Below are positions 1 through 53,867 of a DNA stretch of 64,000 bases, piece by piece. Every line of letters starts with the position of its first letter. Position 1 is the first letter of the stretch. The DNA is from an uncultured Candidatus Saccharibacteria bacterium (GTDB lineage: Bacteria; Patescibacteriota; Minisyncoccia; Phycocordibacterales; JACOZG01): NCBI GenBank assembly GCA_964399075.1, contig CAYNPK010000003.1, forward strand, positions 6,306 to 70,305, read 5' to 3'. A model generated the notes under the pieces. That model saw nothing but the letters and a program-made list of their open reading frames with translations. It did no database searches and was not told the origin of the DNA. The translations under genes and the position numbers were made by a program.

Positions 1-1272
1 TTGTTGAAAAAGGAAGATCTCTTGGATAAGCGTCAAGAAGATATAGACACGGAACTAGAAAACATCAAAAACAAGAGTAATGAGGTAAAGCGACTTAGGG
101 AAGAAGCGTTAAAGCAAGAACAAGAACGGCGTCTAGCACTAGAACGCTTAGCTAACTTGACTCCGGAACAAGCGCGAGAAGAAATAATCAAAGAGACGGA
201 AAAGCAATATCAGGATGATTTGGTAGCGCGCCAACGCAAACTGGAAAGTGAAAATAATGAAACCCTAGAACAACAAGCCAAAAAAATTCTCACTTCGGTA
301 ATCCAACGCCTAGCTAATTCTACGGTTCCAGAGATTATGTCCACGGTTGTGGAAATCCCCTCAGATGATGTTAAGGGTAAAATTATTGGCAAAGAAGGAC
401 GCAATATTCGCGCCTTCGAGAAAGCCACCGGCGTGGAAATTATCATTGATGATACACCGGGAACGATTGTGCTTTCTTCTTTCGATCCGGTCCGACGTCA
501 GATTGCGAAAGTAGCTTTAGAGAAATTAATCGCCGATGGTCGTATCCAACCATCGCGAATTGAGGAAGAAGTAGAGAAAGCTAAGGAGAGCGTCTCTAAA
601 ATTATTAAACAAAAGGGTGAGCAGGCAGCTTACGAGGCAGGAGTCTTCAACCTTGATCCGAGAATCATCCTCATCCTTGGTCGCCTCTATTTCCGAACCA
701 GTTATGGACAAAATGTTTTGCAACACTCCGTGGAGATGGCCCACTTGGCTGGAATGTTAGCCGAGGAATTGGGCGCGGATCCAACAGTTGCTCGGGCCGG
801 GGCTCTCTTGCACGACATCGGCAAAGCGGTTGATCACGAAGTCTCCGGCACTCACGTGGAAATTGGCCGAAGAATCTTAGACAAATTCGGCGCCGGCTCT
901 GAAGTGATTAAGGCGATGCAAGCGCATCATGAGGAATATCCTTACGAAACTCTAGAATCAATCATTGTTCAAACAGCTGACGCTATCTCTAGCGCCCGAC
1001 CGGGCGCCAGACGCGATAGTATTGAGAATTATCTGAAGCGCCTCAAAGAATTAGAAGATTTAGCAGGTAAAATAAAAGGGATTGAAAAAGTTTACGCCAT
1101 TCAAGCCGGACGAGAAATTAGGGTATTTGTGAGGCCAACAGAGATTAACGACCTAGAAGCCAAGAAAATCGCCCGCGATATTGCCGTCCAAATAGAAAAA
1201 GAGCTTAAATATCCAGGCGAAATTAAAGTCACCGTAATTAGAGAAACCAGAGTAGTAGAATACGCGAGATAG
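1..1272 (+). CDS. rny: Ribonuclease Y (5' end cut by window edge)
   Basis: N-terminal coiled-coil, KH domain (GKIIGKEGRNIRAFEKATGVEIIIDD) and HD domain (HSVEMAHLAGMLAEELG...LLHDIGKA) in RNase Y order. Confidence 0.9.
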   Translation: MLKKEDLLDKRQEDIDTELENIKNKSNEVKRLREEALKQEQERRLALERLANLTPEQAREEIIKETEKQYQDDLVARQRKLESENNETLEQQAKKILTSVIQRLANSTVPEIMSTVVEIPSDDVKGKIIGKEGRNIRAFEKATGVEIIIDDTPGTIVLSSFDPVRRQIAKVALEKLIADGRIQPSRIEEEVEKAKESVSKIIKQKGEQAAYEAGVFNLDPRIILILGRLYFRTSYGQNVLQHSVEMAHLAGMLAEELGADPTVARAGALLHDIGKAVDHEVSGTHVEIGRRILDKFGAGSEVIKAMQAHHEEYPYETLESIIVQTADAISSARPGARRDSIENYLKRLKELEDLAGKIKGIEKVYAIQAGREIRVFVRPTEINDLEAKKIARDIAVQIEKELKYPGEIKVTVIRETRVVEYAR

Positions 1273-1293
1273 AAAATAGGGATAAAAAAGGAA

Positions 1294-1328
1294 ACCCCGC
1301 TAGTCCTATGGACTAACGGGGTTTTTGT
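1294..1328. terminator. Rho-independent terminator, bidirectional between convergent rny and the 1346-2698 gene
   Basis: Hairpin ccccgctagtcc/ggactaacgggg followed by a T-run (gtttttgt). Confidence 0.6.
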
Positions 1329-1345
1329 AACAAACAAAGATCAAA

Positions 1346-2698
1346 TTACCAAGCGAAGGGCCTGCAGACCTGACTCTTGAGAGCCGAGAAACGCAGGCGG
1401 ACTGTCCGGCGACGAGGTGACAACTCCTTAACGGAGAGCGGTCTCGGCTGGCCAGTACAGACCAACTCCGCAACTTCCGGTGGCAATATCTCCGTCGGTA
1501 GAAGCGCAATGAGCTCATTCTCATCAATCGCCGTCCGCAAACGCTGACGGCGATCTGACTCTCTATTGCCCTGTTGCCATCGTCTTGCTTCCCTTGCCTT
1601 AAGCATTCCTCCCAAGGTTCTTCCGTAAATCTTCTTCAGGAGAGCGATAACCGGGCTCGTCACTGCCAACATACGGTGGGTCCGGGCCAGTTTCGCCAAC
1701 CAGTCGATTGCATAAAACAAGCAACAGAAAGCAATCGTCACTCCGTGGATCAAGACGATCAAGAGTGATAAGGCGCCGGCAATAGCCAGACTCTCCCACC
1801 ACAATTGCCGAGGTGAACAGAAGTTTTCAACAAACCATTTCACCTCACCTTCCTTGACGAACCCCCGAGTAAACCAGAAGACACAACCGATCAGGAAGAT
1901 TCCAGCAGGGAAAGCCGGGATCAGGGGCCAATAAGCTGGGTATCTTTCCTCTCTTTTCTCTCGATGAGTCCAGGACTCTTTCTTCCGGTAAAGGAAGAAG
2001 CTATCCTCCCAGTCAAGATAGCTCGTGGGCAAACCATCTCTGCACAGCCAATCGATCCGACTCCAGCGCAGGCCCAGAAGAAGTGCGACGAGGAGGTGCG
2101 CCAGATAGGCAAACCCCCAGAAAATCGCCATCGGCAAGGCGAAGATCGCTCGTCGCCGGAACTGACATTGATCCACTGGCGGCGTTTCGCACCACCAATT
2201 GACCAAACGCCAGACCCAGCTAGCCGGCTTCTTGGCGAAGAGGCCTTCCGGCACCTCCACACCCACCGAGCCAGTGGCAAAACCATCCACGAAATTGGCT
2301 CGAAATTCTCCAGAGTGATCGTAAAGGAGGTAATTGTACTCCCGAAACTGACGCTTCGTGAGCAAATCATTTTCTCGATCAGGAGAACAATTCCGGACGA
2401 TCGTGGCATGGATAATGTTCAGGCCCGGGCGATGGAATTGGACATGAGCCAAGCCATCCTGCAAAGGAACCAGTTGCCGACTGGTTTCCTCCTTACCGTT
2501 CTGGACGGAAATCAGGAGACGGTCCAGATACCAACTGCCGCGCGTCAAATCTCGTCCAACCAAACCCAAAGCCGCCACCTTGGACAGGCACCAAGCTACC
2601 GTCACGGTAGCTGATTCTGCCACCTCCGACTTGACGGACAGGATGAGCTCCTGTTGATCGTCCTTGATTCTCTCCAATTCCCGCAGAGTCGTAATCAT
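1346..2698 (-). CDS. Hypothetical polytopic membrane protein (450 aa) encoded by anomalously high-GC DNA (about 58-63%)
   Basis: Long ORF with a soluble N-terminal region, several hydrophobic helices and a basic C-terminus; no family recognised; GC about 60-63% on sampled 60-nt lines versus about 42% nearby. Confidence 0.55.
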   Translation of the reverse strand: MITTLRELERIKDDQQELILSVKSEVAESATVTVAWCLSKVAALGLVGRDLTRGSWYLDRLLISVQNGKEETSRQLVPLQDGLAHVQFHRPGLNIIHATIVRNCSPDRENDLLTKRQFREYNYLLYDHSGEFRANFVDGFATGSVGVEVPEGLFAKKPASWVWRLVNWWCETPPVDQCQFRRRAIFALPMAIFWGFAYLAHLLVALLLGLRWSRIDWLCRDGLPTSYLDWEDSFFLYRKKESWTHREKREERYPAYWPLIPAFPAGIFLIGCVFWFTRGFVKEGEVKWFVENFCSPRQLWWESLAIAGALSLLIVLIHGVTIAFCCLFYAIDWLAKLARTHRMLAVTSPVIALLKKIYGRTLGGMLKAREARRWQQGNRESDRRQRLRTAIDENELIALLPTEILPPEVAELVCTGQPRPLSVKELSPRRRTVRLRFSALKSQVCRPFAW

Positions 2699-2775
2699 CC
2701 CAACTCCCTTCTGTTCCTCTTGGCACTTGTTAAGGAACAGTCAAATCTAAACAAAACATCTCGAACACTGTATTT

Positions 2776-2804
2776 AGTTTAGCACAATGAATTTGTCTTG
2801 TCAA
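2776..2804 (-). promoter_or_regulatory. Near-consensus sigma70-type promoter (TTGACA-17-TAAACT) reading into the 1346-2698 gene
   Basis: On the minus strand: ttgacaagacaaattcattgtgctaaact; lies about 70 nt upstream of the ATG at 2698. Confidence 0.45.
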
Positions 2805-2888
2805 CTTGGCCAAACAAGATTATAGGGCTATACTTATAGCTGTAGTGGAAAGAGGTCGAGCTATTAAAAAACCAACCCGAATATTACT

Positions 2889-3161
2889 ATGAATAAAGCA
2901 GCTCTAGTTGATGCCGTTCACGCTAAAATCGGTGGGACCAAAATCGCCGCCGAGCAGGCCATTGACACTATCATTGAATCAATCATCAATACTTTGAAAG
3001 CAGAAGGTGAAGTGTCAATCGCCGGCCTGGGCATCTTCTCAGCCAAGCGCCGTGCAGCTCGCACCGCCCGTAATCCTCGAACCGGCGAGCAGATCCAAGT
3101 TCCCTCGATGTGCGTACCCAAGTTCCGCGCCGCTAAGGCTCTGAAGGACGCCGTAAGATAA
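2889..3161 (+). CDS. hup: DNA-binding protein HU
   Basis: 90 aa; MNKAALVDAVHAKIGGTKIAAEQAIDTII...RNPRTGEQIQVPSMCVPKFRAAKALKDAV is a typical HU/IHF fold signature. Confidence 0.9.
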   Translation: MNKAALVDAVHAKIGGTKIAAEQAIDTIIESIINTLKAEGEVSIAGLGIFSAKRRAARTARNPRTGEQIQVPSMCVPKFRAAKALKDAVR

Positions 3162-4129: not shown

Positions 4130-4200
4130 GCGGGGTTAGTTAAATGGTATAATAGCGGTTTTCCAAACCGCGGTCGGGAGTTCGATTCTCCCATCCCGCA
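4130..4200 (+). tRNA. tRNA-Gly (anticodon UCC)
   Basis: Cloverleaf folds: acceptor gcggggt/atcccgc, anticodon stem gcggt/accgc with loop tttccaa, T-arm gggagttcgattctccc; no encoded CCA. Confidence 0.8.
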
Positions 4201-5908: not shown

Positions 5909-7147
5909 CTAGGCTTGATTACCGGCGATGTAACCCATCGTCCAACACAGCTGGAGACTGTAACCGCCGGAAGGGCGATTGATATTGAGCAAATCACCGG
6001 TGACATATAAATTAGAATATTTTTTCGAACACATCGTCTTCAAATCTACTTCATCGAGAGAGACACCGCCGTCGGCGACTACCGCACGCTCGAAACCCAT
6101 CAGACCAGTGATCGTCATTGGCAAAGCTCTAAGCTGACGAACAATTTGTTTTCTTTCTTCTCTGGTAACACTGTGCACTTTTTTATCTAAATCAATTTCG
6201 ATAATCATTGCAATCGCTTTAGCTAAACCAGCTGGCACAAATTCTTTAATAATCGTCCGTAGATTTTTATTTTTATTAGCGTCAAAAATTTTAATAACTC
6301 TTGTTTCTAAACTTCCAAGATCAGTCTGGGGATATAAATCTAATCTCGCCCTCACTTGACCGGAACGGAGGAGATCAGCAACTTGGCTGGCGCTATTTAA
6401 GATTGTCGGTCCAGAGAGACCAAAGTGAGTAAACAAAATTTTTCCAGTTTTAGAAAATTGTTTTTCCCCTTCCAGAAAGAAAGTAATTTTTGCGAAAGAG
6501 AGGGAAATTCCAGCCAACATTTTCACCCACTCATCAGAGACTTGGAGTGGCACAATCGAGGGTGTCGGTTCCGTCACCGTGTGACCAAGCGCTCGCAGAA
6601 AGGCGAAGCCGTCACCGGTCGCCCCCGTCTCTTGATGCGAGAGACCACCAGTGGCGAGCACGTAAGACTTGGCGCTGAAGTTCCCCTGATTGGTCACCAC
6701 CTCCGACACACTCCCCTCTCCGGCAATTATTTTTCTCACCTGACAATTTGTTTTAACTATCACTTGCTGTTTCTGGAGAGCTTTAATAAACATCTTACAA
6801 ACATCCACCGCTCGCTCTGTTTGCGGGAAGGCGCGCTGACGCGCCTGGACAACCAGAGGCAAACCACGCGCCTCGAAAAATTTGAAAGTGTCTTGATTGC
6901 TAAACTGCGAGAAGGGTGAATAGAGATAAGCTTCCGCCTTGCCATACTTCTGCAAGAACTTGCGCGCGTCTGGTTCCGCATTAGTGATGTTACATCTTCC
7001 ACCACCGGTAATTTTCAATTTCTCGCCAAGGGCAGAATTCTTTTCCAACAACAAGACTCGCCGACCGCGCTCGCCGGCAACCAAGGCCGCCATCATTCCC
7101 GAGGCGCCACCACCAATCACAATTAGATCCCAGTTAATATTTTTCAA
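5909..7147 (-). CDS. FAD-dependent oxidoreductase, HI0933/BaiN (YhiN) family flavoprotein
   Basis: 412 aa; N-terminal dinucleotide-binding motif DLIVIGGGASGMMAA and KLKITGGGRCNITN, typical of the HI0933-like family. Confidence 0.85.
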   Translation of the reverse strand: MKNINWDLIVIGGGASGMMAALVAGERGRRVLLLEKNSALGEKLKITGGGRCNITNAEPDARKFLQKYGKAEAYLYSPFSQFSNQDTFKFFEARGLPLVVQARQRAFPQTERAVDVCKMFIKALQKQQVIVKTNCQVRKIIAGEGSVSEVVTNQGNFSAKSYVLATGGLSHQETGATGDGFAFLRALGHTVTEPTPSIVPLQVSDEWVKMLAGISLSFAKITFFLEGEKQFSKTGKILFTHFGLSGPTILNSASQVADLLRSGQVRARLDLYPQTDLGSLETRVIKIFDANKNKNLRTIIKEFVPAGLAKAIAMIIEIDLDKKVHSVTREERKQIVRQLRALPMTITGLMGFERAVVADGGVSLDEVDLKTMCSKKYSNLYVTGDLLNINRPSGGYSLQLCWTMGYIAGNQA

Positions 7148-7179
7148 TTTAACTTTTTAATTTTAACCTCAACGCTGTT

Positions 7180-7252
7180 TCGGAGTGCCGGGATTCGAAC
7201 CCGGAGTCGCCCGCTCCCAAAGCGGGTATGTTAGCCGTTACACCACACTCCG
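7180..7252 (-). tRNA. tRNA-Pro (anticodon UGG)
   Basis: Reverse complement folds as acceptor cggagtg/cactccg, anticodon stem cccgc/gcggg with loop tttggga, T-arm ccgggttcgaatcccgg; no encoded CCA. Confidence 0.8.
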
Positions 7253-7313
7253 TCCATACTCGCCACTCTAACATTTTTAAGCTACAATGTCACCGTCCTT
7301 AAGCAATAAGACC

Positions 7314-7387
7314 CGGGCTGTAGTATAACGGTAGTATTTACCCATGGGGTGGGTAAGACGGGAGTTCAACTCTCCCCAGCCCGACCA
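7314..7387 (+). tRNA. tRNA-Pro (anticodon GGG), CCA encoded
   Basis: Acceptor cgggctg/cagcccg, anticodon stem taccc/gggta with loop atggggt, T-arm gggagttcaactctccc, discriminator a then cca; the D-stem uses two G-U pairs. Confidence 0.65.
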
Positions 7388-7406
7388 GATTAAACTTTTT
7401 TCAAAT

Positions 7407-8549
7407 TCAGAGGCGTTTTGTTGCTCGCTCAACCACGTCTACCAAAACATTCGACAATTGTTTCGCATTTTTATTCCATGTTGAATTTTGGGCAATAAAA
7501 CTTTGCGCTTTCTTTCCCATAACTTTTCTTTGGGTGTCATTATCAAGCAAACCATTTACAGCTGAAACAATTGCTTCTATATTTTTTGGTTCTATTAAAA
7601 TACCGCTTTCTCCGTTTGAGATGACGTCTTCGTTTCCATTGTTTGTTGTGGTAATCACCGGCTTTCCAGCAGACATTGACTCCAAGACCGTACCCATCAG
7701 CCCATCACCTTCGTGGGAGGGAAAAAGACAAATATCTGCCAATGCAAAATAATCGTAAGGATTATCTATTACTCCGGTCATAGTCACATTATCATTCAAA
7801 CCAAAATCGACGATTCTATTTCGCAAGACAGTATTTAATTCACCATCACCAATAATCCAAAGATGAACGTCGTTATTTTTTGTGACAATTTTTCTAAACG
7901 CATCAAGAAGAGTGAGTACTCCCTTGCGTTTAATAAGCCGACCCGCGTACACTAAATTATATTTCGCCCTCGAAACAATCTTTGACTTAATCAACAACGG
8001 ATAATCAACCCCAGTACCAAGAACATAATTAAACTTTACTTCTTTTAATTCCTCGATCCACTTTTGTGCGACATTTGAACTAATTGAAATAGTCGCATCG
8101 CAGAACTTTATAAATGCCCTATACCAAGGTATGGGTTGCGATGGGTACCCTGATAAATATATAACATTTGGCATACCAGATGGTTTTAAGATACTGTCTG
8201 GTAAATAATAAGACAAGATAACATCCGGCCTGTTACTTTTCAGTTCATCAAAAATCCTTTCATTAAACGCGAGCGATTCAGTCACCCAACGTACGTGCCC
8301 CACATCTGGATCATTTCTGTATAGATCTGGAACTGAGCTCGAAATATCAAATCTAAATAAATTTATTCTCGGTAATTTTCTGGCGATAAATTCTTTAAAC
8401 AGACCCGTGTCCCCTAATCCTTTTGGAATTGAAGTGTAAAAGTCAATTACATGCCCGAGTCCAGAAAGAAATTCCGCGTGTTTTAAGAAAACTTTTTCTG
8501 ATCCAGCTATATGATAAGGGGTTCTAGGTTGGATAATTGCTATCTTCAT
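7407..8549 (-). CDS. Glycosyltransferase family 4 (GT-B fold, GT1/GT4)
   Basis: 380 aa; C-terminal EGDGLMGTVLESMSAGKPVITTTNNGNEDVI nucleotide-sugar binding motif (E-x7-E). Confidence 0.85.
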   Translation of the reverse strand: MKIAIIQPRTPYHIAGSEKVFLKHAEFLSGLGHVIDFYTSIPKGLGDTGLFKEFIARKLPRINLFRFDISSSVPDLYRNDPDVGHVRWVTESLAFNERIFDELKSNRPDVILSYYLPDSILKPSGMPNVIYLSGYPSQPIPWYRAFIKFCDATISISSNVAQKWIEELKEVKFNYVLGTGVDYPLLIKSKIVSRAKYNLVYAGRLIKRKGVLTLLDAFRKIVTKNNDVHLWIIGDGELNTVLRNRIVDFGLNDNVTMTGVIDNPYDYFALADICLFPSHEGDGLMGTVLESMSAGKPVITTTNNGNEDVISNGESGILIEPKNIEAIVSAVNGLLDNDTQRKVMGKKAQSFIAQNSTWNKNAKQLSNVLVDVVERATKRL

Positions 8550-9070
8550 AAGCTAATTTTTTTCTCTAAATAATCACAATACATTTCATACTGAACCTTT
8601 CCAGTGATATATTTTTCAATAAAACCAACGTATTTAGGCAAGTCTTTGTAGTAAACAAAAATTCTTTCCTCGGTCTCGTTATCCTTGAGAGGAATGAAGG
8701 TGTCCAGTTTGCCAATTTTGCATACGAATCTGACTTGTAAATTATGCTTCTGGATCAGGTCAGTAGCACTATCGTTAATTACCTCTAATGATCCGAGTAG
8801 TTTTACTTGCTCAGGGATACACTGCAACTCTTCCATAAATTCCCGATTCAAAGCTTGGAATGCAGATTCGCCATCTTCAACCCCGCCACCAGGAGGCGTA
8901 AAGCTATTACCGCCTTTTTCCCTTACCAAAGCAATGAGCTTATCTTCTGTGCTAACAAAGCCATACACTTGCTGAACAGGAATTCCTTCGGGCATTGTCC
9001 TGGGGTGCCAGACGTAGGTTATTTTTTGGCCATCCTTTTCCCTCGTTTCTATAAGTTTGTATTTTCCCAT
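8546..9070 (-). CDS. NUDIX hydrolase
   Basis: 174 aa; Nudix box GGGVEDGESAFQALNREFMEELQ; 4-bp overlap with the downstream GT4 gene suggests translational coupling. Confidence 0.8.
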   Translation of the reverse strand: MGKYKLIETREKDGQKITYVWHPRTMPEGIPVQQVYGFVSTEDKLIALVREKGGNSFTPPGGGVEDGESAFQALNREFMEELQCIPEQVKLLGSLEVINDSATDLIQKHNLQVRFVCKIGKLDTFIPLKDNETEERIFVYYKDLPKYVGFIEKYITGKVQYEMYCDYLEKKISL

Positions 9071-9115
9071 ATTATCTGTAAGTATAATAAAAAGGACCCT
9101 GTTTTAACAGGGTCC

Positions 9116-9928
9116 TCACATGATACTCCTTAGATATGCAATTTCTTTTTGGAGTATCGCAATGATCAAATCTCGCTCTGGTTTTCTAACAACGATTCCA
9201 TGGGCTGGCTCGATATTTTGGCGCGACCCCTCCTTTTCGAGGTACTTAACAAAGTCTCCAGGCCTGAACTCATCGATGCTAGACAACTTGGCCGTAGCAC
9301 TAAGAATTCGCTGGATTCGTGAGCAAGATGCCTGATGACCAATGATAATTTGGAGCTCGTTGCCAGTTTTTTCGAACATACTCTTGAGCAAGAGGTAGAG
9401 CCGCAGGGAAAACTCCCCCTGATGCTCTCCCAATTTGTTAAACCAGCCAACCAACTCTGGATACTCGGCTTCCCCGTCGGAGTTAATAACAGGATCGCCA
9501 AATCTATACAACAATTTGCACGAATCCAGTTTTTGTTGCCAAGCTTTCCAGGCATCAAGGAGCGGCTTGTATTCATTGCCTTGGACATGGTTTCTGATGA
9601 CGAAATCACCTTGATAGATCTCTCGCACGCCAGTAGTTTCACACATCTCAGTGGGAATGTTCGCAGTAAAAAATTCTTCTACTGCGATAGTCGCCGTTTG
9701 AATCGCTCGAAGACGACCACTGTGTTGAACACAGATTTTTGACGCGCCAACCGTGCGACATAATTTGACTATTTCCTTGCCGAGAATCTTGACGTCGAAT
9801 TTTGTCTCCTCAGTAAGTGGCTGATTAAGATCTTGAGAAAGAACTGGCACATCTACACCATGCCGAACCAAAACCATTATTTTGCCCGAAGAACACCCTC
9901 GAGCGTCTGAATTTTCAATGAGTCTCAT
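9116..9928 (-). CDS. Histidine phosphatase superfamily protein (phosphoglycerate-mutase-like)
   Basis: Catalytic RHG motif (VLVRHGVD) near the N-terminus; start placed at the ATG at 9928, which has an aaggaggg RBS 8 nt upstream (the track ORF starts earlier at a TTG). Confidence 0.7.
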   Translation of the reverse strand: MRLIENSDARGCSSGKIMVLVRHGVDVPVLSQDLNQPLTEETKFDVKILGKEIVKLCRTVGASKICVQHSGRLRAIQTATIAVEEFFTANIPTEMCETTGVREIYQGDFVIRNHVQGNEYKPLLDAWKAWQQKLDSCKLLYRFGDPVINSDGEAEYPELVGWFNKLGEHQGEFSLRLYLLLKSMFEKTGNELQIIIGHQASCSRIQRILSATAKLSSIDEFRPGDFVKYLEKEGSRQNIEPAHGIVVRKPERDLIIAILQKEIAYLRSIM

Positions 9929-9965
9929 AAGACCCTCCTTTCCAATAAAGAGGATACAATAAATG

Positions 9966-9995
9966 TTGAGATGTATCAAGTGCTTATGGTATACT
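9966..9995 (+). promoter_or_regulatory. Putative sigma70-type promoter (TTGAGA-18-TATACT) for the GT2-NUDIX gene
   Basis: ttgaga at 9966 and tatact at 9990, about 20 nt upstream of the ATG at 10016. Confidence 0.4.
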
Positions 9996-10015
9996 CGTCA
10001 ATTATCACAACAACC

Positions 10016-11359
10016 ATGACCAAGCCACTAATTTCCATCGTTTTAGGTAGTTACAACAGAAAATCTTTCCTCAAAAAAACAATCAAAACAATAAGGGAAA
10101 ATGAGATCTCTGTTCCATTCGAGATCATTGTCATTGATGGCGGATCTACTGACGGAAGCGTTCGATATCTTTCTTCCCAAAAAGACATAGTAACGATAAT
10201 TCAACATAATCGTGGTTTTTGGAAAGGGAAGAAGATTAAAAAAAGAAACTGGGGTTATTACATGAACATAGCTTTTCAGGCTACTCATGGAAAATATGTT
10301 GTTATGGTTTCTGATGATTGCCTCATCGTCTCCGGATCAATTATGAATGCCTACAATCTCTTTGAACGTGAGACGAGGCAAGGAAATAAAGTTGGCGGAA
10401 TAGCCTTTTATTGGAGAAATCTACCGTATGAAAAAATATATTACGTCCGTCAAACTCTTGGACATAAGTTATCAATAAATCATGGTATGTATTTGAAAAA
10501 AGCTTTGGAAGAGGTCGGTTTCTGCGAGGAAGAAAAATATCCCTTCTATTACGGAGATGGGGATCTTTCCTTAAAACTTTGGAGGTCGGGCTATTTAATC
10601 ATTGATTGCAAAGAATCTTTTGTTGAACATTTTCACTTTTCGGGCATGAAGATTAGACAAGAAAATAGTACACAAAAAGAGAAATATAAAAAAATCTACA
10701 TGGAGTCATGGAAGGGTATATTCTATGATGAAAAGATTGATAATCAAAGTGGCAAGATTTTCCTAAATTATAAAGATCCACACAACATCGCCAGACTTTT
10801 TAAGTCTAGCCCTTGGTATTATATTGGTATTCTACAATCAAAACTTATTAGGTTATATGGGTATGAAAGAAAACGACCAAATAGATTACCAAGTATTGAG
10901 ATGCTGTCTAATTATTCAAACATTAAACATCTGCTTTCAAAGTTCAAAATTATACCAGAACAGTTGTGTTTTTTTGCCCTAATCAAACAAAACGACCAAA
11001 TACTAATGGGACTTAGAGAGTATCGAAAAGATAACCCAGTATGGACATATCCTGGCGGTCGTAGCGTGCCCGGAGAAACAATGCTGGAATCATTGAAAAG
11101 AGAAATAAAAGAAGAAATTGGGGTGAAAAATCCTGAATTTGTAAAGGTTATTGGCCAAAAAAACGGAGTAAAAGAAGGAGATAGAGTTTATTTCATTGAA
11201 TGTAAGATCTCTGAGAAACCTCAACTTATGGAACCAGAAAAATTTAAGGAATGGAAATGGTTTCCAATTAATGGACTACCAGAAAACCTTATTGACCAAA
11301 AAGATGCCGAGATTATAAAAAGACTTATGCCATTAAAATTGCCCCAAATTACAAACTAA
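10016..11359 (+). CDS. Fusion protein: family 2 glycosyltransferase (GT-A) N-terminal domain plus C-terminal NUDIX hydrolase domain
   Basis: N-terminal PLISIVLGSYNRKSFLKKTI...IIVIDGGSTDGS is a GT2 signature and a DxD-like DGD is present; C-terminal GGRSVPGETMLESLKREIKEEIGV is a Nudix box; start taken at MTKPLISIV. Confidence 0.75.
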   Translation: MTKPLISIVLGSYNRKSFLKKTIKTIRENEISVPFEIIVIDGGSTDGSVRYLSSQKDIVTIIQHNRGFWKGKKIKKRNWGYYMNIAFQATHGKYVVMVSDDCLIVSGSIMNAYNLFERETRQGNKVGGIAFYWRNLPYEKIYYVRQTLGHKLSINHGMYLKKALEEVGFCEEEKYPFYYGDGDLSLKLWRSGYLIIDCKESFVEHFHFSGMKIRQENSTQKEKYKKIYMESWKGIFYDEKIDNQSGKIFLNYKDPHNIARLFKSSPWYYIGILQSKLIRLYGYERKRPNRLPSIEMLSNYSNIKHLLSKFKIIPEQLCFFALIKQNDQILMGLREYRKDNPVWTYPGGRSVPGETMLESLKREIKEEIGVKNPEFVKVIGQKNGVKEGDRVYFIECKISEKPQLMEPEKFKEWKWFPINGLPENLIDQKDAEIIKRLMPLKLPQITN

Positions 11360-50162: not shown

Positions 50163-50361
50163 GTATGGAGTTACTGAAGTTTGGCCAGGACTTTGACAAT
50201 CGAATAGGATGAAGAGGTAAAAATAGAGAAATCTATTGTTATTCCTCAACGTCTGAATAAGAGATAGCGTAAAAACCTTAACCTTGTTCAGATTTGAGGG
50301 ATCGCAATGTTTGCGGTTCTTGGTTCCCGCCAACCGATGGCGAAGTGGCAAGGAGAGCAAC

Positions 50362-50934
50362 ATGAAAAAGATTGTTCTCGCCGGGCCGCCTCGGTCTGGC
50401 AAGAGCTGTGTGCGCGAAGGGCTGAAGCAGGCCATTCGCGCGATTCCCGGCAACGCGGTGTATCCGTATGTGATCACCGCTTGCCCCGACGGCGAAGGTT
50501 CGTGGTTCCAGGAAACTGTGAACAACGACCCAGAGCTGGCGGCGGCGTGCAAGGCGGCCTACAAGGCCAAGTTCACGCCGGAGTTCGTGAAGCGGGTTGC
50601 GGACTCCGTCCGCAATTGCTCGCTCGAGCTGACTCTCGTGGACATTGGAGGTATCACCTCCGTTGAAAACGAGGAGATCTGCAGTTCGGCGACGCACATT
50701 GTCATTCTCGCGAGCGACATGAGCAATGTCGCCGAGTGGCAGGAGTTTGCTCGGAAGGTCGGGCTCACTGTGGTGGCCGAGATTCACTCGGATTACCACG
50801 GCACGGAAGATGGCGTCGAGGGCGTTGGTCCCGACGGTATCCTTCGCGGGTCGGTTCACCACCTCGAACGAGGTGAAGTAGTGGCCGACCGTCCGATGAT
50901 CAAAGCTCTCGCAGACCATTTGCTGGCGATTTAA
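50362..50934 (+). CDS. P-loop NTPase of unrecognised family (190 aa), first gene of the high-GC island
   Basis: RBS aaggaga 7 nt upstream; Walker A KIVLAGPPRSGKSC, Walker B-like LELTLVDIGG; GC3-rich codon usage. Confidence 0.6.
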   Translation: MKKIVLAGPPRSGKSCVREGLKQAIRAIPGNAVYPYVITACPDGEGSWFQETVNNDPELAAACKAAYKAKFTPEFVKRVADSVRNCSLELTLVDIGGITSVENEEICSSATHIVILASDMSNVAEWQEFARKVGLTVVAEIHSDYHGTEDGVEGVGPDGILRGSVHHLERGEVVADRPMIKALADHLLAI

Positions 50935-51079
50935 TTCGCCAGGGTTGTGAGTCAGCCAAAAACTCTCATGGGAAACTGGAGAAGCCCATCTAATTCTTCT
51001 CCTCTCTGTTGAGTTCTTGAGAAGGTCTTGAGAACTCATTGAGAGGTTTGGGACCACTTGAAAAAGAAAGGAGTGTCCC

Positions 51080-51385
51080 ATGTCCACGTACAACATCAGC
51101 CTGACCGATGGCGTGCTCAAGGTGGGGTTCGGGGCTCCGGCCCAGAACGATCAGATCGTGAAGGATGCGGAGACGCGCCTCGACGAGATGATCTCCACCG
51201 GCGAGCTCGCGGGCGGTGACGTGATCCGGGTCAACGGCCCGGCCTCGCTCCCGGTCGCGATGGTGATCGCCCACAAGGTGGCGCACCTGTACGGCGCGGT
51301 GGCGTGCTTCGACCCCAAGCTGTCGAAGTACGTCGTGGCGATCAGCCACGACCCCGCCTACGTCGTGGGCGACCTGATCGACTAA
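51080..51385 (+). CDS. Hypothetical 101-aa protein, candidate partner of the P-loop NTPase
   Basis: RBS aaaggag 7 nt upstream of the ATG; high-GC codon usage; sequence MSTYNISLTDGVLKVGFGAPAQNDQIV...GGDVIRVNGPASLPVAMVIAHKV; no family recognised. Confidence 0.55.
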   Translation: MSTYNISLTDGVLKVGFGAPAQNDQIVKDAETRLDEMISTGELAGGDVIRVNGPASLPVAMVIAHKVAHLYGAVACFDPKLSKYVVAISHDPAYVVGDLID

Positions 51386-51895
51386 GTCGATCAGAAAAAT
51401 TCAGCAGTTCTTGTTACCGTTCTCTGTGGCAAAAGAATGGTAAGTCGGCAACGGCAGTGTTGCAAACATGGAAGAACAGAGCCTAAAAATTTTGTTCTTC
51501 CCCTTATTCAATTCATCACGTGTTGTGGTGAGTTGATTGGGAAAACGATTGAAAAAAGAAAAAAGAAAGGAGGCCAGCTCGACAAAGAACGTCGGGACGA
51601 TGGATATTGCAAACCTCGTTCCGAAGGGTGACGGGAACGCCGAGCTTGATTCGGCGATTCTGGAGGCCCAAAGGGCTTGCGCCGCTTACCGCGCAACGCA
51701 GGCGCAGGTGCAAGACTGGCGCAATCAGCCGGTCTATCCGTATTAGAAAGGAGGTTAGAGTTTGCTGAAAGATTCTCATCAAAAATCTTTCCCTTTTTAA
51801 GTTCATGAGCGATGTAGTTCGTGGACTTATTGGGATTTCACGCCCACGGGAACGGCTAAGGCCAAATCCCACGGGCAAGAATGGAGGAAAGTATA

Positions 51896-52657
51896 ATGCA
51901 GAATATTGAATGGTCGGATCAGATCGGTTCCCGCGGTCGGGGTGCGTGGCTCCTGTTCGTTAAAGGTGATGAGATCATTCCGTTCAGCGGAATGGATATC
52001 CCTGGCGTGGTTGTGGTCCGAGGAACGGACTACACCAAGAACGGTAAGTGGTCGCACACCACCTACCGGCTTCAGGTCGCGGACAGCGTGCGGCACATCG
52101 CCGGGCGCAACGGCTGGGAAACTGGCCGGTTCGTGGAAGGCCTCGGCTCTGCCGTTGGCTGTGCCACGCCCGACACGTGGGCGGACACAGCCAGTGCGCT
52201 CGGGGTTTCGGTGCCGAGCACGATGGAGTTCCTGCGGGCGTGGCGGCCAGGGGCCGCGGAGAAGTTGGATGAGGTCGAAGAGTCGTTGGCGAAACTGGAG
52301 GAAGTTTCCGAGCAGGAAACTGACTCCGTGATCGTCACCGTCTCGTTCGGCTCGCCGACCAACCGCGCCATCCGCGAGGGATACTGGGAGTGGCCAAAGG
52401 GCATCCCGGGATACGCCGCGGAGATCCGACTGAAGGATTCCGACAAGGGCTGGAGCGAGGGCAACATCACGGTCGTCGGAATCTCCGGCACCGTTCTCTC
52501 GGTCAAGCACTCGGCTGGTATGCACGGCGGTTACTACGCCGTGTCGGTCGCAGTTCTTCCAGGAACGGAGACCGAGATCCCGCCCTTCGAGACCGCCCAG
52601 GAAGTCGCCGAACCGCGGTTCGGCACTTGCTTGGGCGACTTGCTCAAGCGAGGATGA
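51896..52657 (+). CDS. Hypothetical 253-aa protein within the island (the track ORF starts 15 nt earlier)
   Basis: ggagga RBS 7 nt upstream of the second ATG; high-GC codon usage; no family recognised; followed by a strong terminator. Confidence 0.5.
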   Translation: MQNIEWSDQIGSRGRGAWLLFVKGDEIIPFSGMDIPGVVVVRGTDYTKNGKWSHTTYRLQVADSVRHIAGRNGWETGRFVEGLGSAVGCATPDTWADTASALGVSVPSTMEFLRAWRPGAAEKLDEVEESLAKLEEVSEQETDSVIVTVSFGSPTNRAIREGYWEWPKGIPGYAAEIRLKDSDKGWSEGNITVVGISGTVLSVKHSAGMHGGYYAVSVAVLPGTETEIPPFETAQEVAEPRFGTCLGDLLKRG

Positions 52658-52677
52658 AGAAGATGAAGTAGTTCTTT

Positions 52678-52733
52678 AGGAGGAGGGCGAGAGAGAATCG
52701 AAAAACGATCTCTCGTTCTCCTCCTCCTTTTTG
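52678..52733 (+). terminator. Rho-independent terminator
   Basis: Long GC-rich hairpin aggaggagggcgagagagaatcg-aaaaa-cgatctctcgttctcctcctcc followed by ttttt. Confidence 0.65.
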
Positions 52734-52804
52734 AAATCATCAGCGCGTTGCTGGTGGTTTCATTGGGAGAAGTTGTGAGTCAAATCTTTTTTGGAGGAAA
52801 AATC

Positions 52805-53008
52805 ATGAAGAGTTCTTTGACAGTTCTGTGTCTGTTTCTGCTGGTCGTGGGATTGCTCCTGACCACTAGCACCGGATGCGACCTGGTGATCCAGGCCGGT
52901 GGCGGTGGGGGTGGGTACCCGGTCGTGTACGACTATGGGTACTACGAGCCGGCCGTGGTCTACGACTACAGTTGGTACGACTACGGCTACTACGACTACT
53001 GGTGGTGA
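52805..53008 (+). CDS. Small Tyr/Trp/Asp-rich lipoprotein (67 aa)
   Basis: ggagga RBS; signal peptide with lipobox LTTSTGC; mature part GGGGGGYPVVYDYGYYEPAVVYDYSWYDYGYYDYWW. Confidence 0.5.
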   Translation: MKSSLTVLCLFLLVVGLLLTTSTGCDLVIQAGGGGGGYPVVYDYGYYEPAVVYDYSWYDYGYYDYWW

Positions 53009-53052
53009 CGAGGGGACTCGAGGGGACTTTCGTTCCCAGAAAGGAAACTACG

Positions 53053-53223
53053 ATGAAAAAGATTTCTTTTCTGATCGTGATGGTGCTGGTGGCGATCACT
53101 ACTGGTTGCGATTGGGAGTTCCGACCTGGTGGCCGTGTGTACGAGTCGATCCCTGTCATTTACAATGATGGGAACTACAACTGGTACAATTACGGCTATG
53201 GTTGGTACGTCACGGAGTACTGA
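53053..53223 (+). CDS. Small Tyr/Asn/Trp-rich lipoprotein paralog (56 aa)
   Basis: Signal peptide with lipobox AITTGC; mature part rich in N/Y/W (NDGNYNWYNYGYGWYVTEY); preceded by the same hairpin-plus-RBS motif as the next gene. Confidence 0.45.
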   Translation: MKKISFLIVMVLVAITTGCDWEFRPGGRVYESIPVIYNDGNYNWYNYGYGWYVTEY

Positions 53224-53262
53224 CGTGATGAGGGGACTTTCGTCCCCAGAAAGGAGAATGAG

Positions 53263-53802
53263 ATGAAAACGCTCACTTCTTTGGTGATTGTGGCGATGAT
53301 TCTGGGAACGGCTTCGACGGCTTCGGCTGGTGAGAGAAGCCACCGCCATCGGCCGGTCTTCGTTCGCTCGGCACCGGTGGTGCGGGTAGTCCGCCCTCCC
53401 GTGGTGGTGCATCGGCGCCCGGTCTACAGACCGATGCCGGTGTACTACGCCCCTCCGCCGATGGTGCGGGTGGTCCGTCCGGTGCCGGTGGTTTACCACC
53501 ATCGGCCTACCACCTTAGAGGGAGTGGCTGGCATCGTTGGCGTTGCTCTTGGTGGTGCGGCGGACATTGTCGCCGTTAGCCGTCAGAGCTCGCCGACGAT
53601 GATCGCGCCCATGCCCCTGCCGGCACCCCCTCCGCCCTATCAGGTGGAGGCGCCACCTGCTGGGTTCGTTGAGACCGGTCGGCGCTACCACAAACATGGT
53701 GGTGACACTGGCCGTCTCGACTACATCAAGGGATGGCTCAATGGGAGGGAGGTCAAGGTCGAATACAACGACTTTGGCCAGATTGAAGAGATTGATGACT
53801 AG
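53263..53802 (+). CDS. Secreted Pro/Val/Arg-rich repeat protein (179 aa)
   Basis: Signal peptide MKTLTSLVIVAMILGTASTASA; PVVRVVRP-type repeats (RPVFVRSAPVVRVVRPPVVVHRRPVYRPMPVYY...MVRVVRPVPVVY); C-terminal globular part. Confidence 0.5.
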   Translation: MKTLTSLVIVAMILGTASTASAGERSHRHRPVFVRSAPVVRVVRPPVVVHRRPVYRPMPVYYAPPPMVRVVRPVPVVYHHRPTTLEGVAGIVGVALGGAADIVAVSRQSSPTMIAPMPLPAPPPPYQVEAPPAGFVETGRRYHKHGGDTGRLDYIKGWLNGREVKVEYNDFGQIEEIDD

Positions 53803-53826
53803 TGAGCCGGGAGGTCTCGCTGTCAC

Positions 53827-53867
53827 ACACGCGCCTACTGCTTTCGAGCGGTGGGCGTGTTTTTTTG
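53827..53867 (+). terminator. Rho-independent terminator closing the high-GC island
   Basis: Hairpin cacgcgcc-(loop)-ggtgggcgtg followed by ttttttt; low-GC tsaE begins 15 nt later. Confidence 0.6.

Follow-up and report, generated by a model that had tools for sequence, protein, structure and literature searches.

A probable horizontal single-gene insertion between rny and hup in a Patescibacteria genome, carrying a membrane protein of an uncurated family

Genes and signals between rny and hup

The stretch of DNA analysed here (hereafter, the window) comprises 64,000 nucleotides of contig CAYNPK010000003.1 (assembly GCA_964399075.1, positions 6,306 to 70,305 of the forward strand). Near its left end, a 450-amino-acid (aa) open reading frame (ORF), P0001, lies on the minus strand between rny and hup, the genes of RNase Y and HU. 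A first-pass annotation, made from the sequence alone, had regarded this ORF as foreign. Codon usage, amino-acid composition and the gene order of relatives now agree on this point as three independent lines of evidence, and the foreign nature of P0001 is well supported. Taking the interpretation as a whole, we consider it probable that a single gene, encoding a membrane protein of an uncurated family, was inserted horizontally between rny and hup.

The organism was placed by its RNase Y. The full-length protein (509 aa, read on the L002 contig) has orthologues of 70-81% identity in metagenome-assembled genomes (MAGs) of Patescibacteria, including Ca. Vogelbacteria, Nomurabacteria and Paceibacteria. 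On this marker the host appears to be a member of the Patescibacteria, also known as the Candidate Phyla Radiation (CPR), belonging to the Paceibacteria group and standing near Ca. Vogelbacteria and Nomurabacteria.

Both conserved neighbours of P0001, named correctly at first sight, were verified with Pfam. The left one is the 3' part of rny (1..1272, plus strand; RNase_Y_N, KH_1 and HD domains), cut by the window edge, while the right one is hup (2889..3161, plus strand; Bac_DNA_binding, 3e-28), beyond which the window continues with the genes of a class IV aminotransferase and a YibE/F protein. P0001 occupies 1346..2698 of the minus strand, exactly the 450-aa ORF that had been described; its ORF, composition, homologues and gene context identify it as the inserted gene and as a member of an unnamed family of membrane proteins with four conserved cysteines. 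Read from its start, it comprises an N-terminal Ig/FN3-like beta-sandwich (codons 18-170; 2189..2647, minus strand), delimited by the AlphaFold2 (AF2) model and conserved columns; a DQC-x-FRRR juxtamembrane motif with three hydrophobic blocks (codons 176-335; 1694..2173, minus strand), defined by hydropathy, AF2 and alignment; and a basic helix followed by a near-invariant C-terminal tail (codons 336-450; 1349..1693, minus strand), recognized by charge count, motif and the predicted local distance difference test (pLDDT) of the model.

Between the converging 3' ends of rny and P0001 lies a terminator-like hairpin (inverted repeat I2, 1292..1324) with a 15-bp stem, 8 G-C pairs and a 3-nt loop, bordered by runs of A and T on opposite sides. 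A terminator scan gave a minus-strand match at this hairpin with the tail CCTTTTTTAT, and on the plus strand TTTTTG follows directly after the stem. The hairpin looks able to serve both convergent genes, as had been suggested when it was called a shared bidirectional terminator. A hairpin follows rny in each of the relatives compared as well, with a sequence differing from that of the window.

At the other end of the gene, a Shine-Dalgarno-like AAGGGAG (2704..2710, minus strand, read from the reverse complement) precedes the ATG of P0001 by 5 nt. Further upstream, a scan combined with spacer alignment located a promoter-like TTGACA-17-(TG)-TAAACT with an extended -10 TG facing P0001 (2776..2804, minus strand), next to a promoter-like TTGGCC-17-TATACT facing hup (2806..2834, plus strand), whose TATACT -10 box is conserved in relatives. 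When the rny-hup spacers of four relatives were aligned with the flanks of the insert, the window proved to consist of native hup-upstream sequence from about 2765 rightwards, the pattern common to all being TTTA..ACAC...TTGTCAA...TATACT...ATGAAyAAAGC; in relatives L031 and L032, hup is preceded by TTGTCA-17-TATACT. The -35 box TTGACA facing P0001 is the reverse complement of this near-palindromic TTGTCAA box, and since it derives from a conserved element upstream of hup, the promoter-like site should be host DNA rather than part of the import. The site that had been described as the gene's own promoter is thus present (2804..2776, minus strand), but it lies in native DNA. Because the number of promoter-like sites is no higher than in shuffled sequence, the promoter call rests on position and not on statistics.

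Gene order and composition of the insert

For comparison we used seven genomes with long contigs, whose RNase Y is 72-81% identical to that of the window. The gene order tig-clpP-rny-hup is kept in all seven, often with nusA-ppa before it and a class IV aminotransferase gene after it. In 7/7 of them rny adjoins hup with no family gene between, the distance from the rny stop to the hup start being 345, 299, 295 and 541 bp in the four closest relatives and 164, 72 and 131 bp in the three further ones, against 1616 bp in the window. The check proposed at the outset, whether rny and hup are adjacent without the insert in related genomes, therefore favoured the insertion, with gaps of 72-541 bp. 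In a neighbour-joining (NJ) tree of RNase Y the window falls inside the group formed by its relatives, as sister to L030 plus L031/L032; this nesting is read from a single gene and should be taken with caution. Since the window is nested among relatives lacking P0001, one gain is far more parsimonious than about four losses. A search via the identical HU protein for an insert-free variant matched only contigs of the same organism.

The AT-rich sequences on either side of the high-GC (guanine plus cytosine) coding sequence are native, as had been supposed, and align with the spacers of the relatives. Because the flanks align as native on the left and on the right, the imported DNA would measure about 1.4 kb, from about 1325-1345 to 2700-2765, and would consist essentially of one coding sequence (CDS).

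P0001 has a GC content of 54.2%, compared with 43.1% for the window (GC1/GC2/GC3 = 56/45/62%; GC3 61.6%). Within the ORF GC varies between 53 and 59%, and 100 nt or less beyond either end it is down to 36-39%. The counts of the first-pass annotation for two 60-nt lines were accurate (38/60 G+C at 1381-1440 and 36/60 at 2101-2160), but its figure of 58-63% GC holds for the richest of such lines and not for the whole ORF. The deviation itself goes beyond chance: segments of ORF length with at least 54.2% GC make up 4.3% of the window and are located only at P0001 and at 50.0-52.7 kb.

Codon usage also sets the gene apart. Its GC3 is 0.616 versus 0.406 +/- 0.048 in 29 native genes (z = 4.3), its relative synonymous codon usage (RSCU) is uncorrelated with that of the native gene pool (r = 0.01), and its root-mean-square (rms) RSCU distance to this pool, 0.586, exceeds the largest value of any native gene (0.541). 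The amino-acid make-up is likewise of the high-GC type: native proteins have a mean GARP/FYMINK ratio of 0.83 and do not exceed 1.04, and the family median is 0.84, whereas P0001 reaches 1.42. With this value it ranks 11th among 163 family members; P0019, the nearest sampled relative, has 1.50. As most members have a GC content within -0.05 to +0.03 of that of their own flanks, an excess of GC does not come with membership of the family.

The native, orthologous hup has 53.5% GC and a GC3 of 0.55, rising to 62% GC in its 3' half (3001-3100). Because this native gene is also GC-rich, local GC content alone is no marker of foreign DNA in this genome, and the first impression of a high-GC block at 1.3-3.2 kb was partly owed to hup.

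A large family found in CPR bacteria and on phage-like contigs

The first-pass annotation saw no recognisable family in P0001, which is true of curated libraries. NCBIfam and PADLOC gave 0 matches each; the best Pfam-A match was DUF5084 with 12 bits (cut-off 27); and PDB sequences gave 0 matches with the single sequence and the family profile alike. The best PHROG was a holin with E = 0.045, an identity that we rejected because the match is below threshold and P0001 fits a holin neither in size nor in architecture. In raw sequence space, by contrast, exhaustive HMMER (phmmer) comparison found many homologues: at E<=1e-3 there are 1121 representatives of clusters formed at 50% identity, and 566 of them reach E<=1e-10. 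Most are 350-470 aa long, and the matches span the N-domain and the tail, some covering residues 18-449 in one stretch. A word-indexed search of 5.8 billion clusters returned the query only, and its version with a 34-sequence profile returned the query and one further member, P0075; hydrophobic low-complexity words probably saturate the 8000-candidate prefilter of this search. Since it missed the whole family, a protein should not be called an orphan on the strength of such a search alone. P0001 is, as judged from its sequence, a full-length member of a large uncurated family of membrane proteins and not an ORFan. It is nevertheless a divergent one, its best homologue being 41% identical over the N-terminal half, and no other protein shares its 50% cluster.

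An alignment of 34 members including P0001, among which no consistent Pfam match was found, contains 13 invariant columns (W36, C37, R74, G92, F154, P158, C178, R183, C414, L435, K441, C445 and P447), four of them cysteines (C37, C178, C414 and C445). The same 13 columns are invariant in a second alignment (A2), and all are present in P0001. The N-domain is marked by the motifs RWC, R-x-LVPL, F-x-RPG-x-N and I-x-A-x-IVW, to which the list for P0001 itself adds VP-xxx-FAK-x-P-x-W. The juxtamembrane stretch reads VP-xxx-FAKEPP-x-W...WVN...P-x-DQC-x-FRRR and is followed by a variable hydrophobic core. The C-terminus has the form LVC-x-G...LP-xxx-RT-xx-LRF-xx-LK-x-[KQ]VCRPFA, or more loosely RT-xx-LRF-xx-LK-x-KVC[RK]P[FY]; the complete tail motif occurs in 121 of the 150 best matches and near-variants in most of the others. 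P0001 ends with RRRTVRLRFSALKSQVCRPFAW.

P0001 thus shares with its family RWC, R74, FAK-x-P-x-W, DQC-x-FRRR, the hydrophobic blocks and the LVC-x-G...KVCRPFA tail, and its architecture is that of the family: a soluble N-domain, the DQC-FRRR segment, three hydrophobic blocks and a basic tail. It differs in its identity of at most 41% to other members, its separate 50% cluster, its composition of the high-GC type and a first hydrophobic block of 28 residues, where 35 are typical. The layout first read from the translation, namely a soluble N-terminal part, several transmembrane (TM) helices and a basic C-terminal tail, was borne out. By hydropathy, the blocks span residues 184-211, 258-281 and 301-335, the first two being separated by a charged loop, and the net charge of the last 115 residues is +14. 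Across P0001 and 33 members, the hydropathy plan begins with a block of 25-50 residues, which a polar loop separates from two further blocks or one of double length.

An AF2 model built with the family alignment reached a mean pLDDT of 79.5 and a predicted template-modelling (pTM) score of 0.65. pLDDT exceeds 90 for residues ~20-200 and for the last 40 residues (92-96 in the tail), the N-domain is folded as an all-beta sandwich, and helices are placed at 177-207, 262-277 and 296-342. Foldseek searches of PDB and BFVD with this model gave generic Ig/FN3-like and beta-sandwich matches only, with template-modelling (TM) scores of 0.12-0.17 on the query. As there is no signal peptide and FRRR stands ahead of the first block, the N-domain is likely to be cytoplasmic, and we infer the same location for the DQC-FRRR segment and the C-terminal tail. 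The tail could be cytoplasmic only if the first hydrophobic block formed a hairpin or were re-entrant. The tail may dock on the sandwich and gather C37, C178, C414 and C445 into a membrane-anchored metal or redox site, the one hint of docking being the high pLDDT of both parts.

Multi-TM enzymes with a cytosolic, zinc-binding Cys-rich domain are known among the DHHC S-acyltransferases. P0001 resembles them in being multi-pass, in its conserved, predicted cytosolic cysteines near the membrane and in a possible Cys-terminated partner seen in five loci (see below). It differs in that its cysteines lie in the beta-sandwich and the tail and not in a loop between TM helices. An identity as DHHC S-acyltransferase or ZAS anti-sigma factor was rejected: regular-expression searches of P0001 gave no DHHC, CxxC or HxxxCxxC motif, and Pfam gave no match.

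The genomic distribution of the family was studied with one narrow search pattern, and the numbers of loci are therefore lower bounds. Family genes were found in at least two Ca. Buchananbacteria MAGs, one MAG labelled uncultured archaeon, 12 metagenome contigs and 8 IMG/VR contigs (63-481 kb). In Buchananbacteria the surroundings are cellular and include infB, rbfA, folD, ppa and clpP. At the IMG/VR loci nearly all genes are co-directional (27/27, 15/15 and 21/21), and the flanks encode an intein/LAGLIDADG-interrupted ribonucleotide reductase (RNR), the anti-Pycsar protein Apyc1, NADAR, a microbial poly(ADP-ribose) glycohydrolase (PARG), Tpt1, NAD synthase, NT5C, an HNH endonuclease and TnpB-like transposases; one ORF matches a terminase-large-subunit PHROG. 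The interrupted RNR large subunit (L008, 20-2170) is encoded on an IMG/VR contig of 266 kb, where ~5.7 kb separate it from the family gene downstream, and the homologues of Apyc1, NADAR, PARG and Tpt1 come from the pooled flanks of L008, L009, L012 and L013. These contigs are credible candidates for jumbo phages.

Five phage-like loci share a syntenic array in which the genes of an M50 peptidase, HAD_SAK_2, PRTase and DUF6915 proteins precede the family gene, and those of a class II aminoacyl-tRNA synthetase, an aminotransferase, DUF3228, AAA and amidohydrolase proteins follow it. Within 1 kb upstream of the family gene, each of the five encodes one or two paralogous proteins of 90-160 aa (L007, 5789-6274; L010, 6946-7410; L014, 6548-6985 and 7137-7409; L015, 7172-7564 and 7566-7973; L019, 7071-7487 and 7495-7953), all of which end in GW-[RSH]-[ST]-SS-[WLA]-x-C-COOH (in short, GW-x-SSS-x-x-C). 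Directly downstream of the family gene, these loci encode a Cys-rich lipoprotein of ~100-130 aa with the motif PWE-x-IPDPP. The GW-x-SSS-x-x-C motif was found neither in the rest of the 438 kb of fetched loci, those of CPR bacteria included, nor in the window. A C-terminal-Cys partner as a feature of the whole family was consequently rejected: it is confined to one phage clade, and P0001, unlike the members of that clade, stands alone without partner genes. One IMG/VR contig (L014) carries the family gene as two ORFs, of 128 aa (7965-8351) and 197 aa (8405-8998), so that it has either become a pseudogene through a frameshift or stop codon or been sequenced with an error.

Another member, P0075 (L027, 2089-3387), ~24% identical to P0001, forms a single-gene GC spike as well (57.5% GC and GC3 0.69, with flanks of 42.5%). 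It belongs to a four-gene plus-strand block standing between the minus-strand genes prmC and prfA of another CPR-like genome of ~43% GC, in a neighbourhood of prmC, prfA, rpmE, rpsB, tsf, pyrH and frr. As P0001 and P0075 both form such spikes, divergent high-GC members have made their way into low-GC CPR chromosomes on no fewer than two independent occasions, each time at another site.

Origin and possible role of the inserted gene

The most probable course of events is that ~1.4 kb of DNA of higher GC content, essentially one CDS, was inserted into the short rny-hup spacer in this lineage. The donor would then be an unsampled genome or element of higher GC content. P0001 would be transcribed divergently from hup, with transcripts ending at the hairpin shared with rny. 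As a phenomenon, the case is an ordinary horizontal acquisition.

Several observations weigh against this interpretation or parts of it. Only chance-level matches were obtained for direct or inverted repeats and target-site duplications flanking the insert, no integrase, transposase or recombinase ORF lies between 1273 and 2888, and no tRNA gene is adjacent. A close homologue that could represent the donor was not found, the best being at most 41% identical: tblastn of P0001 against GenBank phages and PLSDB plasmids gave no match, and donor searches in IMG/VR with P0001, P0019 and P0007 returned nothing close. The promoter-like sites of the region number 3, against a shuffle expectation of 1.7 +/- 1.2, which is chance level, and to our knowledge CPR promoters are little characterised. 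Three hydrophobic blocks following a cytoplasmic N-domain would naively place the tail outside the cell. With regard to function, the guess given below draws on distribution and neighbourhood, PADLOC has no match to P0001, and the IMG/VR contigs are no more than credible candidates for viruses.

A related view is that P0001 is the remnant or cargo of a mobile element (a prophage moron, an integrative element or a cassette) whose mobility functions were lost or acted in trans at a hotspot between rny and hup. We regard this as possible but rather doubtful; it leaves no contradiction with a horizontal single-gene insertion, with which it overlaps, as the mechanism of the latter is left open. It gains from the variability of the slot. 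The space between rny and hup holds a 59-aa ORF in L030, 62-aa ORFs in L031 and L032 and an 89-aa ORF in L033, and no ORF in the remaining three relatives. These small ORFs belong to no Pfam family and bear no relation to P0001; those of L031 and L032 are alike, so that five genomes, the window included, have four mutually unrelated occupants. Just past hup, L033 carries genes of SocA_Panacea and an HNH-repeat endonuclease (8590-11127), L035 those of a radical-SAM and a SAVED protein (6027-7612), and L034 a series of small ORFs without assignment (6378-9274). The occurrence of variable, conflict-type genes downstream of hup in the relatives suggests that the neighbourhood of this gene is a hotspot for cargo in the lineage. 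The presence of the family on phage-like contigs, and its second member parting prmC from prfA elsewhere, also accord with a mobile origin. The lack of an integrase, recombinase, transposase, att-like repeat and tRNA at the site, however, speaks against it, as does the reduction of the insert to one CDS.

Phage morons of the kind described by Hendrix, and other single-gene islets at hotspots between core genes, provide the closest concept. P0001 is like them in being a single gene of atypical GC content between core genes, with a promoter-like site and a terminator, in being absent from relatives, and in that the occupants of its slot vary between genomes. Unlike morons, it belongs to a bacterial chromosome rather than a prophage, its promoter-like site lies in native DNA, and it is accompanied by neither mobility machinery nor repeats.

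According to the first-pass annotation, the same pattern recurs at 50284-53867, suggesting repeated acquisition from a similar high-GC source. This island, flanked by the gene of a PilB/GspE-like ATPase and by tsaE/polA, is protein-coding, with five plus-strand ORFs of GC3 0.65-0.94. One of them (51080-51385) encodes a Csx3 homologue (PF09620, 26.8 bits, cut-off 21) and another (53053-53223) a small lipoprotein-like product; the other ORFs match no Pfam family. That P0001 and the island came from one high-GC donor is, in our estimate, unlikely. They are the only ORF-length regions of at least 54% GC in the window, both favour the G/C-ending codons CGG, CTG/CTC, CCG, ACG and GTC/GTG, and the suggested comparison of their codon usage did yield an RSCU correlation of r = 0.52. 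The same comparison also yielded almost the same rms distance of P0001 to the island (0.578) and to native genes (0.586), and the GC3 of the island is well above the 0.62 of P0001. The contents are unrelated (Csx3 and unassigned ORFs versus a family membrane protein), and there is no common flanking feature. Because any donor of higher GC content would give such a codon pattern, a common source, and with it the suggested repeated acquisition, is neither supported nor excluded.

We consider it very unlikely that P0001 is ancestral, inherited vertically and lost in the relatives, with its GC content raised by amino-acid content (Arg, Trp, Cys and Leu) or by selection. The family does reside in other CPR chromosomes at the GC content of their flanks, Arg (9.6%) and Trp (4.2%) are abundant in P0001, and the native hup, too, is GC-rich locally (62%). 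Against this, the signal sits at synonymous sites, as seen in the GC3 deviation and in the RSCU uncorrelated with native genes, and members with the same conserved motifs are not enriched in GC. The absence of the gene from 7/7 relatives, among which the window is nested, would moreover demand the four or so losses. Structural RNA was ruled out as a cause of the high GC at P0001, since Rfam and ARAGORN detected tRNAs only across the window, all of them elsewhere, the nearest at 4130.

A chimera of assembly or binning, or a spurious ORF in GC-rich non-coding DNA, might account for the abrupt change of GC at both ends and for long alternative-frame ORFs (e.g. 216 aa on the plus strand), but it is effectively refuted: the sequence across both junctions is 100% identical in three separate run assemblies (Logan contigs, SRR11845627-29), which excludes an assembly artefact, one NCBI contig (72 kb) also carries P0001, with identical junctions, and the reading frame has homologues in all those clusters, every family-invariant residue, the GC3 > GC1 > GC2 pattern typical of coding sequence and no Rfam match.

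As for the role of the horizontally inserted gene, we would venture the guess, tentative at best, that P0001 is not a housekeeping gene but an accessory gene of phage-host conflict, acting in exclusion or defence at the membrane by way of a metal or redox Cys site. This guess is prompted by the architecture of the protein, by a distribution comprising CPR bacteria and phage-like contigs with accessory and anti-defence genes, and by the variable slot near conflict cargo. Superinfection-exclusion proteins such as T4 Imm and Sp or P22 SieA are small, phage-borne, multi-TM accessory proteins that are sometimes domesticated by the host; they represent a functional analogy only, as no similarity in sequence or fold to P0001 was found. 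A more far-reaching idea, which must be called a long shot, is that the family constitutes a membrane machine of phages and CPR bacteria whose cytoplasmic four-Cys module acts on, or partners with, the GW-x-SSS-x-x-Cys proteins (in thiol-linked modification or tethering), the copy in the window having been captured in stand-alone form and kept beside hup, possibly with an anti-phage role.

The rny-hup locus provides a clean case of horizontal insertion of a single gene into a streamlined CPR genome, both boundaries of which could be mapped against seven relatives. It indicates that the rny-hup spacer and the neighbourhood of hup may serve as a variable cargo slot in this lineage. It also brings to light a family of more than 1000 clusters, common to CPR bacteria and jumbo-phage-like contigs, that is described by no curated library. 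With its unusually conserved tail and four invariant cysteines, this family would be a good candidate for curation and for experiments on the interaction of CPR bacteria with their phages.

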